Position numbers and translations under genes: made by a program
NCBI GenBank assembly: GCA_004295055.1
Contig: SHNJ01000031.1
Coordinates: 72,802-136,801 of the forward strand
Direction: 5' to 3'
Length of the DNA stretch: 64,000 nt
Source of the DNA: Alphaproteobacteria bacterium
Lineage (GTDB): Bacteria > Pseudomonadota > Alphaproteobacteria > SHNJ01
Shown: piece by piece, positions 10,519 to 16,309 of the stretch
How the letters are laid out: every line of letters begins with the position of its first letter
Numbering within the stretch: the first letter of the stretch is position 1
The notes under the pieces: model-generated
Databases searched by the model: none
The model's input: only the letters and a program-made list of their open reading frames with translations
Told to the model about the DNA's origin: nothing

Positions 10519-11139
10519 ATGGCGCAAGCAAATTTTGGATTAACCGCTGTTGCAGCTATGGGCGCGGTAACGGCTTTTGGTATTGTGCCAGCCAACGCGG
10601 ATATTTGGCTGCATCAGGGTACCAATAACACTAGTTTTGCCACATCGGAAATGATGACAGGAAATGTTACTGGTGTTCAAGTAAATATATCGGGGGACAA
10701 TTTGTGGGCATTTACGGCTCGTGCAACAAGTCAGTATATTACTGTTACCTCTGGTTTTTCAAACCAACCAGGTATGTTTGCAGGGTTTGACATGTTTAGT
10801 AATCCATTACCAGTAGGTTCTGGTTATAATGACGTGGATCAAACAGGCATAAATATGACTATGAATATTGGTGCTCAGAATGTTGGTCAACTAATTACCC
10901 TAGTTTTTGCTAATTATGGTATGGTTCCACTCAGCAATGGATCGGATTTGTATGACGTTGGAAGCTCTGGACAAATTAATCCATTGTTTATGGGTGCATG
11001 GAATGGCACAGGGGGTCAGAATCAATTTGGCGTCGAAACTCGCGTATACGAAATTACTGGCATTACCGGTGTTCCAGCTCCGGGTGTGTTGACCTTGGCT
11101 ATGGCTGGCGGTTTATTGGCCGCGCGTCGCCGCCGCTAA
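10519..11139 (+). CDS. Secreted protein with PEP-CTERM-like C-terminal sorting tail
   Basis: RBS GGGAGAGAGAAATG. Signal peptide …GIVPANA|D. C-terminus GVPAPGVLTLAMAGGLLAARRRR is a P-x-P, hydrophobic helix, Arg-cluster arrangement. Paralog of 11365-11985. Confidence 0.65.
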   Translation: MAQANFGLTAVAAMGAVTAFGIVPANADIWLHQGTNNTSFATSEMMTGNVTGVQVNISGDNLWAFTARATSQYITVTSGFSNQPGMFAGFDMFSNPLPVGSGYNDVDQTGINMTMNIGAQNVGQLITLVFANYGMVPLSNGSDLYDVGSSGQINPLFMGAWNGTGGQNQFGVETRVYEITGITGVPAPGVLTLAMAGGLLAARRRR

Positions 11140-11195: not shown

Positions 11196-11364
11196 ATGTG
11201 CGCACGAATAATTAATACTATCGTATGATTATAATATAATTATACTAATATGAAATAAAATTAGCAATATAATTGCAAGGATGGCTAAGAATCATTTTGC
11301 CAACCAAATGGTAAGTGGATTATAAATGCTTACTTCAAAAACTACTTTTTTCGTGGAGAGAAAA

Positions 11365-11985
11365 ATGGTCCGAGCAAATTTTGGAATGATTGCCGCCTTT
11401 ACCGCGGCCACCGCTTTCGGCACACAAGCGAATGCAGATATTTGGGAACAACATGGCAGCGACAACACCGCTTTTGCGACATCGGAAAGAATGACCGGCC
11501 GCGAAATTGACGGAATTGAGTACAGTGTTACTGGCGATAATTTATTTGCCTTTACTGGCGTTGCAAATAGTCGATTTATTACCATTATTTCCCCTGCATC
11601 TAACCAGCCTGGTATTGTGTATGTCCTGGACAAAGATGGAAAACCATTTCCAGTAGGTTCAGGTTATAATGACATTACACAAGAGGGCGTCGATATGATT
11701 ATCGATATTGGCGATGCCAATGTCGGTAAAGAAATCACTTTCGTATTTGGTAATTACGGCACGTTGGCGCAAAATGGCGAAACTCCGCTTTTTAATGATT
11801 ACGAATGCGGCCAAATCGATCCAGATGTGGTTGCGACATGGACTCTGACTGGTGGTCAAAATCAATTTGGTTCCGAAACTCGTGTTTGTTTCTTCGGCGA
11901 GGGAGAAGTTCGCGGTGTGCCAAAAGTAAGCACCACGACGGCGACGGCAGCAGCAAGAGCCAGAGCCACGCGCTGTTGCGACTAA
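11365..11985 (+). CDS. Secreted paralog of 10519-11139 with degenerate (Thr/Ala-rich) C-terminal tail
   Basis: Start moved to MVRANFG… (RBS GGAGAGAAAAATG, matching its paralog). Shared blocks are ANFG…TAFG…ANADIW, PVGSGYND and TGGQNQFG.ETRV. C-terminus is VPKVSTTTATAAARARATRCCD. Confidence 0.6.
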   Translation: MVRANFGMIAAFTAATAFGTQANADIWEQHGSDNTAFATSERMTGREIDGIEYSVTGDNLFAFTGVANSRFITIISPASNQPGIVYVLDKDGKPFPVGSGYNDITQEGVDMIIDIGDANVGKEITFVFGNYGTLAQNGETPLFNDYECGQIDPDVVATWTLTGGQNQFGSETRVCFFGEGEVRGVPKVSTTTATAAARARATRCCD

Positions 11986-12000
11986 CAATTAGATAGAATA

Positions 12001-12034
12001 AAAAAAGCCCGGTTTAATCCGGGCTTTTTTATTG
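12001..12034. terminator. Bidirectional rho-independent terminator
   Basis: AAAAAAA-GCCCGG-TTTAAT-CCGGGC-TTTTTTATT. It lies between two convergent genes (11365-11985 on + and 12048-12428 on -). Confidence 0.75.
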
Positions 12035-12047
12035 GGAGTATTTAACC

Positions 12048-12428
12048 TTAGCTTTCATAATTATCATTCGCGAACATGGCGGCGACGCCCGCACCGAAAT
12101 GATTTTCGATGCGGTAATATTGAATTTCCCGGTCGTTAAAATAATTTTGTTTTTTTAGCAAATTTTGCAGCAACGATTGCTTGCGGCGGTATTCGCGGTA
12201 CGCCTTGGCGATCAGGCGCGGGATCGCCTCGGAAATATCGACGATGTTTTTCGCGCCGAATCCCGCAACCGGCATTTCCGCTTGCCACATTCTGTAATGC
12301 CGCAAAGTTTGCAACATCCAATACCGCAGCAATTGAATCTCAGCGCGCATGGCGCAAATCAGCATTTTTGTCTGGCGCGGATTGGCGGGTACAAAATAAA
12401 AACCCGGCCCGGCGAATTCTTGGTTCAT
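12048..12428 (-). CDS. Small protein of unknown function; paralog A of 14172-14540
   Basis: 126 aa with RBS AGGGAGAGC. The C-terminal 43 aa and about 150 nt are near-identical to 14172-14540 (…[47 protein letters not shown]). Transcribed divergently from an XRE regulator. Confidence 0.6.
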   Translation of the reverse strand: MNQEFAGPGFYFVPANPRQTKMLICAMRAEIQLLRYWMLQTLRHYRMWQAEMPVAGFGAKNIVDISEAIPRLIAKAYREYRRKQSLLQNLLKKQNYFNDREIQYYRIENHFGAGVAAMFANDNYES

Positions 12429-12606
12429 AAAAAGCTCTCCCTAAATATTAATTTTTGTTGGTTACGAGGGGTAAAATAGGCCTAAATGGTTAATGAATGG
12501 TTAATTTATAGATAGAAATCATAAAAAATATTACTAATATTCATTTTTTTTATGATTTATCTTGATAATGGGATTCAGGCCTTCTAAAACAAAGCAGGGT
12601 AAGACT
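12429..12606. promoter_or_regulatory. Divergent AT-rich promoter region with GGTTAAT direct repeats (candidate operator)
   Basis: TGGTTAATGAATGGTTAAT at 12487-12505 lies between divergent genes. An analogous GGTTAAT…GTTAAT is in the paralogous region 14754-14772. Confidence 0.35.
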
Positions 12607-13251
12607 ATGACTTTGGATGCTTCTCAAATCCGCGCCGCACGCGCCTTGTTGGACTGGACAATCGAAGATTTGGCCAAAATTACCGGCTTGAGCAAGGATT
12701 CCATCAAAAATGTAGAGCGTGGGCATACTCAACCCCGTATAAATACCCGAATTGTTATAGAAGAAGCTTTTGAAAAAGCAGGCATCGAATTTTTGCCGGG
12801 TTCTGGCGTGCGCAAGAAAAATAATTTAATAACGACCTTAACCGGCGAATACGCCAATCGGCAATTGCTGGATGATGTGTATGCAACCCTTGTGGCTCGG
12901 GAAAATGCGTGTGTCTATATTACCGGCGTCAAGGAAACACAAAGCATCGATAGTGTGGATTATGAATATTTGGAAAAACATATTCAACGCTTATTGAAAG
13001 CGAATATTAAAGAAAAATTGATTGTTGAAGAAGGCGATTCCACTTTTATAGCGCCTTCATACAGCTATCGGTGGATAGCAGAACAATATTTTGAGAATGT
13101 ACCCATCCAAGTTTATGGCGATAAAATCGCCTTTGTGGATTGGGGGCCGCCGGAGCAAATCGTTATCATTCAAAACAAAGGATTTGCCATGGCTATGCAG
13201 AAACTGCTGGATTTCGCATGGCAAAACTGCGCCGTGCCTAAAGGCTTGTAA
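12607..13251 (+). CDS. XRE-family helix-turn-helix transcriptional regulator with uncharacterised C-terminal domain
   Basis: Start set to MTLDASQIRAARALLDWTIEDLAKITGLSKDSIKNVERG (HTH). Same length as, and colinear with, paralog 14937-15584 (conserved EEGD…YRW…VY.DK.A). Confidence 0.6.
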   Translation: MTLDASQIRAARALLDWTIEDLAKITGLSKDSIKNVERGHTQPRINTRIVIEEAFEKAGIEFLPGSGVRKKNNLITTLTGEYANRQLLDDVYATLVARENACVYITGVKETQSIDSVDYEYLEKHIQRLLKANIKEKLIVEEGDSTFIAPSYSYRWIAEQYFENVPIQVYGDKIAFVDWGPPEQIVIIQNKGFAMAMQKLLDFAWQNCAVPKGL

Positions 13252-13252
13252 A

Positions 13253-14119
13253 ATGATGCATATATCCGGAAAGCTAAAGCAAATCGTATCCTTAGGGCCA
13301 GAAAATTTCGACTTTCTGAAAGCGGCCAATAACAACGACAGTTATCAATTGTCGCCTACATATTATTTGTTTACCGGAAGAAAAGGTTTATGGGTGTTGG
13401 AACAGGATGGGCAAGCGGCTTTAATTGCTAAGCATCCTAACTTAGAAGACGAATTGTTGGTATTTTATCCTAATGGATATTGCCCAAATCTAGAGCATCA
13501 AGTTTTACATCATGTTCCGCGTAACAGCCGATTAAAAGCTGCAAGACTAGCCGTTTGCGCAAATTCTAATCTCAATGCAGTTATGGATGAGGAACTATTC
13601 TTAGATTGGCGTTACCCAGTCTGCATACTGGATACTGCGTATGTTGGAAAACTGCGCGGCAGGTTATTAGAGGATGTAAAGAACAATTATAATAGAGCCG
13701 CTAGAACGATTTGTAGAATTGAGGCTTACAATCCGGCTGCGCATAAAGATCGCATGAGAGAATTGATTCAACAATGGCATCGCCCGGAAGCGCATGATGG
13801 ATATGAAGGGCTATTAAATATTATGGAACGAATGCCGGGAAATTTCGGCTTAATCGCTCTAACAGAAGAATCTATCGCGGGGTTTATTCACTGGGAAATG
13901 CCATGGAAACCGGGGAGTCCGGCTAATTCTCTGGCCTTGATTGTTGACAAAAGCATTAAAGGATTAAGCGAATTTATGATGGTGGAAATGTGCCGCGCGT
14001 TGGTGCAGACCGGATGCCTTGCTGTCAATATAGGTGGGTCTGAAACCGAAAGCCTTCATTATTTTAAAAGCAAATTTAATCCAAAAATGGTGGATCTGCG
14101 TAATTATAATTATGCTTAA
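13253..14119 (+). CDS. Stand-alone DUF2156 / phosphatidylglycerol-lysyltransferase C-terminal-like (FemXAB/GNAT-fold) protein; putative aminoacyl-tRNA-dependent transferase
   Basis: Start re-set to the ATG 1 nt after the regulator stop (MMHISGKLKQ…); the track's 13091 start overlaps the regulator. C-terminal signature …GSETESLHYFKSKFNPKMVDL matches the FK.KF.P motif that ends MprF C-domains. Confidence 0.5.
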   Translation: MMHISGKLKQIVSLGPENFDFLKAANNNDSYQLSPTYYLFTGRKGLWVLEQDGQAALIAKHPNLEDELLVFYPNGYCPNLEHQVLHHVPRNSRLKAARLAVCANSNLNAVMDEELFLDWRYPVCILDTAYVGKLRGRLLEDVKNNYNRAARTICRIEAYNPAAHKDRMRELIQQWHRPEAHDGYEGLLNIMERMPGNFGLIALTEESIAGFIHWEMPWKPGSPANSLALIVDKSIKGLSEFMMVEMCRALVQTGCLAVNIGGSETESLHYFKSKFNPKMVDLRNYNYA

Positions 14120-14171: not shown

Positions 14172-14540
14172 TTAGGCATAATTATCGTTCGCGAACATGG
14201 CGGCGACGCCCGCGCCGAAATGATTTTCGATGCGGTAATATTGAATTTCCCGGTCGTTAAAATAATTTTGTTTTTTTAGCAAATTCTGCAACAACGATTG
14301 CTTGCGGCGGTATTCGCGCAACGATTGGTTGATCAATCCCTGCACTTTGCTTTGCATATTGGCGATTTTTTTTGCCGGCAATGCGCCGTCATTGTTCATT
14401 TCCGCGCGCCAGGATTTATAATTCTGCAAAGTTTGCAGCATCCAATAACGTAGCAAGCGGATTTCCGCTTCCATCGCCTCGGCTAAATTTTGACTTTTGC
14501 CTTTGGTGTTGGCATTGGTTTTATTTTGTTGTGCTGGCAT
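14172..14540 (-). CDS. Small protein of unknown function; paralog B of 12048-12428
   Basis: 122 aa with RBS AAGGGAG. C-terminus identical to paralog A. Preceded on the same strand by a 47-aa ORF. Confidence 0.6.
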   Translation of the reverse strand: MPAQQNKTNANTKGKSQNLAEAMEAEIRLLRYWMLQTLQNYKSWRAEMNNDGALPAKKIANMQSKVQGLINQSLREYRRKQSLLQNLLKKQNYFNDREIQYYRIENHFGAGVAAMFANDNYA

Positions 14541-14560: not shown

Positions 14561-14704
14561 TTAGGCCGCTTTTTGTACTTTGCGCATTTCTTCAACTACG
14601 TTCAGCGCAAAATAGGGGCCATATTTAATTTCCAAATACTCATAAATTTCTTCTTCGCTCATCATCGCGTAATTTGGTTTGGTATTTTGATTCGCGTAAT
14701 CCAT
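14561..14704 (-). CDS. Small ORF (47 aa) not in the supplied track: MDYANQNTKPNYAMMSEEEIYEYLEIKYGPYFALNVVEEMRKVQKAA
   Basis: Read by hand on the minus strand. ATG at 14704, stop TAA at 14561-14563. It ends 20 nt before the RBS and ATG of 14172-14540, an operon-like spacing. Acidic/aromatic, no signal peptide. Confidence 0.35.
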   Translation of the reverse strand: MDYANQNTKPNYAMMSEEEIYEYLEIKYGPYFALNVVEEMRKVQKAA

Positions 14705-14936: not shown

Positions 14937-15584
14937 ATGATAGACGCCAAACAAATACGCGCCGCGCGCGCTTTGCTGAATTGGTCGCGGGAGGAGCTGG
15001 CCGAACAAACGGGGATTTCCGTCCCCGCGCTTGCTCGCGCCGAAACGGGCGAATCGCAATTGCGCACGACTAGCGCCGAGAAAATCAAATCATCGTTGGA
15101 GCAGGCGGGTGTAATTTTTACGGATGGCAGTGGTGTGAAGCTCAAAACGGATTTGGTACAAATTTATGAAGGTGAAAATTGCTATCTAAAATTGCTGGAA
15201 GATTTTGAAGACCTGAATGTTAAAGGAGAAAAAGAAATTCTGTTCAGTTCTGCTTCTGAAAAAAGATCAACGGATGAGGTTATTGAGAAAACGCGTCTTC
15301 TAAGAAAAAAAGGCATTAAGATGCGCTTTCTTTTGGAGGAAGGCGACACATACATAATGGGTGACCTTTCAGAATATAGATGGATGCATAAAAGTTTATT
15401 TTCCAAGGGTGACGTAAAGCTAGTGTATGCGGATAAAGTCGCTTATTTGGTTAGTTGGATGGAAACACCTCGTGTTGTAGTTGTTTCTGAGAAAAACATT
15501 GCTGAAGAAAATCGAAGAGCGTTTGAATTTATTTGGAATATATCGAAGAAACCGACGCACAGCGATGCGGACATTTCATATTGA
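14937..15584 (+). CDS. XRE-family HTH transcriptional regulator; paralog of 12607-13251
   Basis: MIDAKQIRAARALLNWSREELAEQTGISVPALARAETG HTH. C-terminal domain colinear with its paralog. Confidence 0.6.
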   Translation: MIDAKQIRAARALLNWSREELAEQTGISVPALARAETGESQLRTTSAEKIKSSLEQAGVIFTDGSGVKLKTDLVQIYEGENCYLKLLEDFEDLNVKGEKEILFSSASEKRSTDEVIEKTRLLRKKGIKMRFLLEEGDTYIMGDLSEYRWMHKSLFSKGDVKLVYADKVAYLVSWMETPRVVVVSEKNIAEENRRAFEFIWNISKKPTHSDADISY

Positions 15585-15592
15585 GGCGCAGA

Positions 15593-16309
15593 ATGTTCGA
15601 AATCAAAATTAAAACGTCAAAAAATCAAATCGCCTTATATAATCGCTGTGTATTGGGCGTAAGTCTAGATAGCAATAATCACAGAGGTGATCGTCTGGCG
15701 GCATTGGTAGAATGGGCTAATGATAATTTTAAAGATTGCATCGTCGATCTTACCGATACTTTGCATCGGTATAATCACATGGCGGATCTAAAATTGTCGG
15801 AAAACGATGCCAGATTGAAAGCCCATATTCAGGGCGATCAGTGGCTGCAAGAATCATATCACATATTATCCAATTTCAAGATTCCATATTGCATTCTGCG
15901 GTGGGATGCATGGAAATATAATCATAAGTTTATAAGGTATCTGCATATGTTTGAAAGCGCATTCGCGGTCGATAAAAATTTCCGTGAAGCTGTTATGTAT
16001 GATGTTAATTTATTTTTAGGCAGAAGAAAAGCTCTTGGCAGTCCAACCACGGAGCAATTATGCGTTACCTATTTATTGGAAGAACTTGCTGGTCAATCCT
16101 TATTGTATGAACAATTTCCAGCTGCTGAGATTTATCCGGGTAAACAACAAAAAAGCTTTGGATTAGTGCGTGCTGGGAAAGTGCCTAATGTGCCAACTGG
16201 TTTGCAGAATTCCTGTTTTGTAAGCCTGTATCTGCATGACAAGAGTGCGGGGTTATTTGGTTCCGCCAATGACGATGCAGATTTTGCTGATTTAAGAAAA
16301 ATGGGTTGA
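15593..16309 (+). CDS. Cyclodipeptide synthase (CDPS)-like tRNA-dependent enzyme
   Basis: Start set to the ATG 9 nt after the regulator stop (MFEIKIKT…, 238 aa). Motifs colinear with AlbC-type CDPS are: LGVSLDSNN (the G-x-S catalytic-Ser loop); LVEWANDNF…IVDLTDT (compare LLQWAGQRF…VVYVDT); TYLLEE (the Y…E pair); and SLYLHD (the late Tyr). Confidence 0.65.
   Translation: MFEIKIKTSKNQIALYNRCVLGVSLDSNNHRGDRLAALVEWANDNFKDCIVDLTDTLHRYNHMADLKLSENDARLKAHIQGDQWLQESYHILSNFKIPYCILRWDAWKYNHKFIRYLHMFESAFAVDKNFREAVMYDVNLFLGRRKALGSPTTEQLCVTYLLEELAGQSLLYEQFPAAEIYPGKQQKSFGLVRAGKVPNVPTGLQNSCFVSLYLHDKSAGLFGSANDDADFADLRKMG

Follow-up and report, generated by a model that had tools for sequence, protein, structure and literature searches.

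A free-standing tandem-GNAT protein of the DUF2156 family encoded in one operon with an XRE-family regulator in an alphaproteobacterial metagenome-assembled genome

We analyzed a stretch of 64,000 nt (hereafter the window) of the 269.9-kb contig SHNJ01000031.1 (positions 72,802 to 136,801, forward strand), which is recorded at NCBI as part of a metagenome-assembled alphaproteobacterium with EYC62_ locus tags. The element under study is a pair of adjacent genes, encoding a stand-alone protein of the DUF2156 family and, directly upstream, a regulator of the XRE family (XRE1). The pair and the parts of the DUF2156 gene discussed below are located in the window as follows.

12607..13251, plus strand: gene of the partner regulator XRE1, 214 residues from its ATG, with HTH_3 at the N-terminus and a second, C-terminal domain of ~140 residues
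13091..13252, plus strand: spurious 5' extension of the DUF2156 open reading frame (ORF), non-coding in this frame (NCBI start at 13097)
13253..14119, plus strand: gene of the DUF2156-family tandem-GNAT transferase, 288 residues plus stop, start corrected
13337..13393, plus strand: clade-specific N-terminal motif D29-W47 (DSYxxSPxYYxxTGRKGLW) in GNAT domain 1, defined in a 21-sequence alignment
13652..13708, plus strand: basic inter-domain helix, residues 134-152 (LRGRLLEDVKNNYNRAART), corresponding to helix 137-150 of the structure model
14033..14083, plus strand: C-terminal motif G261-P277 (GGSETESLHYFKSKFNP) with the presumed catalytic residue K272, recognized by conservation and a segment profile

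The assignment to the DUF2156 family, made earlier from the sequence alone, was borne out by a search of Pfam, in which residues 35-265 matched PF09924 (LPG_synthase_C / DUF2156) with 40.9 bits (gathering cut-off 27.5; E = 1.7e-10). The same search, read down to E <= 1, returned no acetyltransferase family and no FemAB family (PF02388), and there were no matches to the protein in NCBIfam, PADLOC-DB 2.0 or PHROGs. The protein (pI 6.8) is devoid of hydrophobic segments (the maximum Kyte-Doolittle mean over 19 residues is 1.2), and no gene for a membrane protein adjoins it in the window.

An AlphaFold2 model computed from 21 homologues (pLDDT 86.7, pTM 0.87) predicts two alpha/beta halves linked by helix 137-150. 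The best match of this model in the PDB, found with Foldseek, was BT_3689 (2HQY; E = 9e-14, TMq 0.74), followed by the alanyl- and lysyl-phosphatidylglycerol synthase (A-PGS and L-PGS) domains together with full-length MprFs, by the peptide synthases Sba18/Sbb17, which depend on aminoacyl-tRNA, and by FemX (E 1e-14 to 1e-9), with the acetyl-CoA-dependent tandem GNATs ranking below these tRNA-dependent enzymes (E >= 5e-8). The matches to 2HQY, A-PGS, L-PGS, MprF and FemX extend over the full length, which supports the modelled tandem GNAT fold, as had been anticipated in the sequence-only reading. The protein is thus a soluble, two-domain tandem-GNAT transferase of the DUF2156 (PF09924) superfamily.

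Three conserved segments were distinguished in the protein. The first is the N-terminal motif, in which S34, Y37, G42, R43 and G45 are invariant and D29, Y31, Y38 and T41 are conserved in at least 90% of the 21 aligned sequences; it has no described counterpart and is a candidate element of the acceptor site. The second is the inter-domain segment 134-152, which contains five K/R and two D/E residues and is aligned with LKGKKFQAKRNHINRF of 2HQY and with ELKGGKLATLRQSLSRG of LpiA. A positively charged helix between the GNAT domains is a hallmark of the family and has been proposed to contact the acceptor stem of tRNA (PMC8913301; PMC6103681).

The third segment, GGSETxxLxxFKxKFxP, is located near the C-terminus; G261, G262, S263, E264, K272 and P277 are invariant in the 21 homologues, and K274 is present in at least 90% of them. 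The FK.KF.P part, whose presence had been pointed out in the sequence-only reading, is aligned with GLRAFK[AS]KFHP of the MprF-type synthases LpiA and Rhizobium etli MprF. FemX (K305) and DhpH-C (F328-K329) use the lysine of the corresponding F-K dyad as their key catalytic residue (PMC12945691). We base the mapping of the active-site residues on FemX/DhpH-C and on hidden Markov model (HMM) alignments, the presumed equivalence of K272 and K305 of FemX being taken from the literature rather than from structural superposition. A further invariant residue, the glycine of the beta4-alpha3 loop (S-I-K-G237-L-S), is compatible with pyrophosphate binding.

The start codon of the gene was then reassigned. 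The stop codon of the regulator (TAA, 13249-13251) is followed by a single base (A, 13252) and by ATG ATG (13253-13258). The DUF2156 reading frame, whose product ends in ...GGSETESLHYFKSKFNPKMVDLRNYNYA, is open back to a TTG at 13091, and the longest ORF (342 residues) overlaps the regulator gene by 161 nt; the NCBI protein TAH32674.1 (340 residues, named 'DUF2156 domain-containing protein') begins at ATG 13097, with an overlap of 155 nt. Five independent lines of evidence place the start at ATG 13253, and not at 13091 or 13097: (i) in the regulator, the 161-nt overlap corresponds to the C-terminal ~53 residues, which are conserved across 40 members of its family and include the invariant W205; (ii) GC content by codon position in the overlap is 0.30/0.55/0.57 in the frame of the long ORF versus 0.56/0.30/0.55 in that of the regulator, with values of about 0.49/0.36/0.40 for both genes outside it; (iii) a family HMM, constructed with the window sequence left out, aligns with residues 64-338 of the 342-residue ORF and with none of the extension; (iv) the closest orthologue (46% identity), in locus L001, is also a 288-residue protein, whose gene carries an in-frame TGA two codons 5' of the ATG; and (v) the gene calls in two independent (Logan) assemblies are of 288 residues as well.

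The product therefore has 288 residues, and the public 340-residue annotation has the wrong start. Longer homologues (309-375 residues) do occur; their N-terminal extensions are poorly conserved and lie 3' of the regulator stop codon, with no overlap. The sequence-only reading had already preferred the ATG next to the regulator over the overlapping ORF, and no conserved extension upstream of 13253 was revealed by the HMM, by the TGA of L001 or by the codon-position GC. Since ATG 13253 is separated from the XRE1 stop codon by one base, XRE1 and the DUF2156 gene form one operon.

The upstream gene does encode an XRE regulator, as had been proposed (HTH_3 of Pfam, 34 bits; cut-off 23). It had been described as a neighbour of the DUF2156 gene, which is correct as to its position but understates the relationship, because the comparison of 17 non-redundant loci (the window, L001, L002, L003, L005, L008-L015, L017, L097, L098 and L100; the scan for related loci used a nine-sequence subset of the alignment) revealed that, in 15 of them, the DUF2156 gene and a gene of one XRE family are directly adjacent. 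The regulator gene is usually located 5' on the same strand, at spacings ranging from a 4-nt overlap to some 120 nt; L002 shows a convergent, overlapping arrangement of the pair.

Two loci lack the XRE partner. In L005, a different gene (173 residues) precedes the DUF2156 gene, while L098 (4001-9320) encodes a 953-residue fusion of a domain of the DUF2156 clade with a C-terminal region of 620 residues (P0030), for which neither Pfam nor the PDB gave a match. The E.E / H.H / E.R spacing in this region had prompted the idea of an amidoligase-like domain, which these searches did not bear out and on which nothing here is built. The fusion gene is followed, with an overlap, by an alanine racemase gene and then by a gene of the beta-lactamase family, an operon that hints at small-peptide chemistry. 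Nothing else is conserved around the pair in the loci compared, except for a downstream gene of 143-147 residues in one sub-clade. It and the DUF2156 gene overlap at the 3' end of the latter (L003, 7040-7471; L097, 6064-6507; L100, 4639-5070; also L011, L012 and L014); the downstream gene has no Pfam match, is absent from the window and possibly represents a third component in this sub-clade.

When 1.84 billion representative proteins were searched with a profile, the DUF2156 protein fell into a clade of 261 clusters at E <= 1e-30, 448 at E <= 1e-10 and 1337 at E <= 1e-3. The named genomes that carry clade members are alphaproteobacterial (Micavibrio metagenome-assembled genomes, Rhodobium orientis, and metagenome-assembled genomes of Rhodobacterales and other Alphaproteobacteria), and we found no characterized member. 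The clade is distinct and uncharacterized, comprising about 260-450 clusters that are derived mostly from alphaproteobacterial metagenome-assembled genomes.

The C-terminal domain of XRE1 is not matched by any Pfam or NCBIfam model. The AlphaFold2 model of the regulator (pLDDT 95.4) gave Foldseek matches to TrmBL2, the sugar-binding domain of TrmB, and the PLD (phospholipase D)-fold proteins Nuc, NucT and Zucchini, and there is no HKD motif and no conserved H, K or D in this domain in an alignment of 40 family members. The absence of conserved His, Lys and Asp residues argues that the domain is non-catalytic, and we consider it a TrmB/PLD-like effector that is probably a ligand-binding sensor. 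The top fold matches, TrmBL2 and TrmB, belong to the TrmB-family regulators, which resemble XRE1 in having a non-catalytic PLD-like effector domain after the DNA-binding one, but in which the latter is a winged helix instead of an XRE/Cro-type helix-turn-helix (HTH).

With regard to function, we tentatively favour, at somewhat short of an even chance, a soluble aminoacyl-tRNA-dependent transferase that acts on a non-lipid acceptor and is under the control of its dedicated regulator. In such a scheme, the basic inter-domain helix would dock the acceptor stem of aminoacyl-tRNA, the invariant F271-K272 dyad of GGSETxxLxxFKxKFxP would position the aminoacyl ester, and the amino acid would be passed to a hydroxyl or an amine of a soluble, non-lipid acceptor held between the two GNAT domains, with the DSY..SP.YY..TGRKGLW motif probably contributing to the acceptor site. 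Such a reaction would yield an amino-acid conjugate or a short peptide-like metabolite. The co-operonic XRE1 would govern expression, its C-terminal domain probably sensing a ligand, and would probably act also on a divergent small gene (small1, see below) through a candidate operator, GTTAAT-N5-GTTAAT. Of this scheme, the family, fold, motifs, start codon, operon structure, conserved pairing and lack of a membrane domain are observations, while the donor, the class of acceptor, the ligand of the regulator and the operator are deduced.

Aminoacyl-tRNA appears to be the most likely donor because the protein combines the basic helix with an FK motif of the MprF type. A soluble acceptor is preferred to a membrane lipid because the protein has no anchor and because the isolated catalytic domain of MprF makes no aminoacyl-phosphatidylglycerol in vivo and cannot acquire its lipid (PMC8131360). 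There are precedents for soluble acceptors, namely VlmA, DhpH/K, PacB and Orf11 (PMC6103681; PMC12945691). The soluble aminoacyl-tRNA-dependent enzymes that modify small molecules, including Sba18/Sbb17, resemble the window protein in size (~290 residues), the double GNAT fold, the tRNA-binding helix and the catalytic lysine of the F-K dyad, but they are FemABX-like in sequence and are encoded in large actinomycete biosynthetic clusters, whereas the window gene has its regulator as the only conserved neighbour. With the FemABX proteins themselves, the likeness (to FemX) is at the level of fold only.

The MprF-type aminoacyl-phosphatidylglycerol synthase domains (A-PGS, 4V35; L-PGS, 4V36; LpiA, 6LV0/5VRV) have in common with the window protein PF09924, the tandem GNAT fold, the basic helix and a near-identical GLxxFKxKFxP motif. 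In contrast to MprF, the window protein is soluble, has an N-terminal motif of its own, and lacks both the flippase domain with its 14 transmembrane segments and an insertion of ~33 residues before the FK motif; on account of these differences, its acceptor is probably not membrane phosphatidylglycerol. A regulated enzyme that uses aminoacyl-tRNA to aminoacylate a membrane glycerolipid or some other lipid, in the manner of the MprF domains or of ErgS, is the least likely of the explanations considered, and we regard it as very improbable. It would account for the family, fold and C-terminal motif shared with the MprF synthases, and free-standing lipid-aminoacylating DUF2156 proteins are known: the fungal ergosteryl-glycine synthase ErgS (PMC8913301) is free-standing, has variable, non-conserved N-terminal extensions and obtains its aminoacyl-tRNA from a separate synthetase. 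ErgS is, however, a eukaryotic enzyme with a sterol acceptor, its likeness to the window protein being stated at the family level only. The window protein is devoid of a membrane anchor or amphipathic extension and lacks a flippase as partner, its surroundings show no conservation of genes related to lipids, and the failure of the isolated MprF catalytic domain to function in vivo likewise speaks against a lipid acceptor.

The following observations weigh against an aminoacyl-tRNA-dependent enzyme with a soluble acceptor. BT_3689 (2HQY), which among the solved relatives is nearest in fold as well as in sequence, has been reported with acetyl-CoA in its active site (PMC10700544), and its Helicobacter pylori homologue HPB8_1270 has been implicated in lysine acetylation of RNase J and described as 'most likely an acetyltransferase' (PMC10700544). 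The existence of an acetyl-CoA-binding DUF2156 protein means that family membership does not settle the donor, and since 2HQY also carries the basic helix, this helix does not discriminate between donors either. The substrate specificity of DUF2156 proteins is not predictable from sequence (PMC8913301). The matches of the C-terminal segment to MprF synthases are individually non-significant (E 0.27-0.77). Moreover, biosynthetic partner genes are not conserved around the pair, and therefore no acceptor can be proposed. Finally, the genomic settings of a clade member in L005 and of a related regulator in L102, both described below, fit a conflict role better than a metabolic one. The statement of the sequence-only reading that the few characterized free-standing DUF2156 proteins are aminoacyl-tRNA-dependent thus holds in so far as this donor is plausible, but not for all of them, as 2HQY and HPB8_1270 illustrate.

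The main rival explanation is an acyl-CoA-dependent N-acyltransferase that acts on a protein lysine or on a small molecule, like the BT_3689/HPB8_1270 branch; we consider it somewhat unlikely. Not only is 2HQY the best match of the model by fold, it is also favoured in the profile-to-PDB sequence comparison (E = 1e-4, as against 0.02 for LpiA), and it is likewise a free-standing tandem GNAT protein of ~300 residues; the invariant G237 would suit the binding of a pyrophosphate group. Conversely, the identity of BT_3689 to the window protein is only about 15%, and a profile of the C-terminal segment alone recovered MprF-type synthases (GLRAFKSKFHP) and no other PDB entries, 2HQY not being among the matches. 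An acetyltransferase family was not matched in Pfam at E <= 1, the acetyl-CoA-dependent tandem GNATs were outranked by all of the tRNA-dependent enzymes in Foldseek, the evidence for HPB8_1270 is genetic and not biochemical, and a dedicated XRE partner, such as that of the window protein, has not been described for BT_3689 or HPB8_1270.

The operon described above is not the only one of its kind in the window. The account made from the sequence alone missed a paralogous unit immediately downstream, composed of a second regulator gene (XRE2) and a gene for a cyclodipeptide synthase (CDPS). The additional features of the two units, referred to as module 1 and module 2, are the following.

12048..12428, minus strand: small1 (126 residues), divergent and lineage-restricted, 69% identical to small2
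12489..12505, no strand: direct repeat GTTAAT-N5-GTTAAT between small1 and XRE1, candidate operator
14172..14540, minus strand: small2 (122 residues) of module 2, paralogue of small1
14561..14704, minus strand: tiny gene of module 2 (47 residues, product ending in -KAA), called as a gene in L006
14755..14771, no strand: module 2 copy of the direct repeat GTTAAT-N5-GTTAAT
14937..15584, plus strand: XRE2 (215 residues) of module 2, 34% identical to XRE1 over the full length (E = 3e-36)
15593..16309, plus strand: tRNA-dependent CDPS (238 residues), the cargo of module 2, matching TIGR04539 (62.2 bits; cut-off 45) and PF16715 (36 bits; cut-off 27)

Module 1 thus has the order small1 (minus), XRE1 (plus), DUF2156 (plus), and module 2 the order small2 (minus), tiny gene (minus), XRE2 (plus), CDPS (plus). 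The cargo of module 2 is also named tRNA-dependent cyclodipeptide synthase by NCBI. The gap between XRE2 and the CDPS gene is 8 nt, and enzymes of two families that use aminoacyl-tRNA are thus encoded in duplicated modules 1.5 kb apart. We rejected the possibility that the DUF2156 protein and the CDPS belong to one pathway, since a CDPS is missing from the other DUF2156 loci and the corresponding module of a close relative encodes a methyltransferase.

Homologues of small1 occur at the same position in L001, L099 and L101, and the small-gene family comprises only six clusters in 5.8 billion proteins; the divergent small genes of distant loci showed no homology beyond the close relatives of the window. 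Over their final ~145 nt (12048-12192 and 14172-14316, minus strand), small1 and small2 are ~97% identical in DNA sequence and differ at four synonymous sites; in the 5' halves, identity is down to about 60-70%. This pattern suggests that the two genes have undergone gene conversion or that the 48 C-terminal residues which they share are under an unusually strong constraint. The exact repeat GTTAAT-N5-GTTAAT is present in only two copies in the 64 kb, at equivalent divergent intergenic sites of both modules (61 and 51 nt upstream of minus-strand start codons); it was not found at the orthologous locus L001.

The tiny gene belongs to a family of proteins of 47-65 residues with the motif [FY]..F..[RK][HFY]GE..A..L.E..ER, encoded divergently 5' of XRE genes whatever the cargo. 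An HMM built from three seeds detected them upstream of the XRE gene in L012, L014, L023, L032, L034 and L045 (E 2e-4 to 6e-16), as well as, weakly (E 0.0065), in the N-terminal part of a longer protein of L010; further members were seen in L003 (4898-5083) and L097 (3852-4022). Seven of ten members end in -AA, and these ends presumably resemble an ssrA-type degron.

A terminator-like hairpin is located beside small1 at 12030..12001. Just upstream of the modules there are two genes for similar putative secreted proteins (10519-11139 and 11326-11985, plus strand), with FTGDNLWAF / YNDxxQxG-type motifs; the product of the first ends in a PEP-CTERM-like tail (VPAPGVLTLAMAGGLLAARRRR), while the tail of the second is different and possibly degenerate.

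We also scanned metagenomes with an alignment of the regulators, the gene following each full-length match being read as the cargo. The cargo genes encode (i) CDPS, in L021 and in module 1 of L099, which probably count once, since the regulators are at zero distance in the tree; (ii) EgtD-like methyltransferases (Methyltransf_33), in L024, L032, L034, L040, L099 and L101, with a weak match in L035, of which L024 and L101 may count once for the same reason; (iii) plain GNATs, in L026, L036 and L041; and (iv) an AAA_15/21 ATPase on a mobilizable element, in L102. Some other members of the regulator family precede unknown proteins. The regulators of L018 and L019 are identical to that of L102 (zero distance), and the ORFs that follow them (276 and 548 residues) have no AAA_15 match. 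The GNAT cargoes of L026 and L036 (278-309 residues) were considered as hidden relatives of DUF2156, which was rejected (hhalign probability below 1% in a single-sequence test).

The close relative L099 (1-6313) contains at least three tandem modules, with a CDPS, then an EgtD-like methyltransferase and then a third module, while L101 (2855-7636) carries a methyltransferase module instead of a CDPS one beside the same MCCase-beta and enoyl-CoA hydratase genes that adjoin module 2 of the window. In a rough neighbour-joining tree of 34 regulators, calculated without bootstrap support, the regulators grouped largely by cargo type, which suggests that regulator and cargo travel as units. The XRE-DUF2156 pair is one instance of a swappable cassette composed of an XRE-PLD-like controller and a cargo enzyme. 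That plain GNATs are among the alternative cargoes is a point in favour of the acyl-CoA-dependent explanation; that CDPS and amino-acid methyltransferases, also among them, use soluble substrates is a point against lipid aminoacylation.

The modular arrangement also brings in the possibility that the DUF2156 protein serves as effector in a cassette for conflict or addiction, of a toxin-antitoxin-like or anti-phage kind. Once freed from the XRE regulator, such an effector would deplete or modify the pool of aminoacyl-tRNAs or produce a toxic metabolite; the regulator would then be a controller or antitoxin, like the C-protein of a restriction-modification system. Such a role could coexist with either donor chemistry, and we judge it improbable. 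It would be in keeping with the regulator-first order and tight spacing (gaps of 1-8 nt or 4-nt overlaps), with the tandem arrays and with the difference in cargo at a syntenic site (the CDPS beside the MCCase genes of the window versus the methyltransferase of L101; three modules in L099). The HTH of XRE1 resembles C.Kpn2I controller proteins (30% identity), and in PADLOC it was only this generic HTH that gave matches (capH, control-protein and RmrA models). The -AA ends of most of the tiny partner proteins could, given the presumed likeness to a degron, be placed on the same side.

The genomic settings mentioned above are also of this kind. The clade member of L005 (1-12930) lies among a giant ATPase gene, genes for HamA and a helicase (Hachiman-like) and a TIR gene, and in L102 (354-7795) the XRE-family gene precedes the AAA_15/21 ATPase gene beside a relaxase, MobC and a transposase. 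Against this stand the absence of any PADLOC or PHROG match for the DUF2156, CDPS, small and tiny proteins, and the fact that EgtD-like methyltransferases and CDPSs are not known toxins. In addition, clade genes without an XRE partner exist (L005, L098), which a lethal toxin would hardly tolerate, and the C-terminal domain of the regulator resembles a ligand sensor and not a toxin-binding tail. GNAT toxins of the TacT/AtaT type have a single GNAT domain of about 170 residues; the window protein differs from them in being a tandem GNAT of 288 residues, in having as its partner a 214-residue XRE protein with a sensor-like domain, and in lacking matches to Acetyltransf and PADLOC models.

A broader and rather doubtful proposal is that the XRE-PLD-like regulator, the tiny divergent gene with its -AA-tailed product and the swappable cargo together constitute an undescribed modular system, which would be either a quorum-sensing-like pair of synthase and receptor or a controller-gated conflict cassette. 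In the former version, the cargo would make an amino-acid-derived signal or allelochemical that is read by the sensor domain of the regulator, and the system would diversify by swapping of cargo.

The assignment of the protein to the DUF2156 family is already public (NCBI), and correcting the start codon and delimiting the clade are incremental steps. To judge from the literature that was searched, three observations are new: a clade paired almost obligately with an XRE-PLD-like regulator, the gating of several amino-acid-derivatizing enzymes by this regulator family, and the organization of the modules as tandem, swappable units.

DUF2156 enzymes are known mainly as lipid aminoacylases, such as MprF, which is involved in antibiotic resistance, and ErdS/ErgS of fungi, whereas the free-standing bacterial representatives are almost unstudied and their donor chemistry is ambiguous (tRNA versus acetyl-CoA). 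The clade described here provides a compact, testable case, namely a soluble enzyme of 288 residues that has a regulator of its own and a lysine that is a clear candidate for catalysis, for which the paralogous CDPS module next door constitutes a natural comparison. If the gating of several amino-acid-derivatizing enzymes by one regulator family and the exchange of cargo at a single chromosomal site are borne out, they would represent an unrecognized regulatory cassette, which may serve as a guide to new small molecules or to a new class of conflict systems. Should the proposal of a modular system prove true, the DUF2156 clade described here would be the first case of a bacterial tRNA-dependent enzyme of this family with a soluble signalling or defence product.

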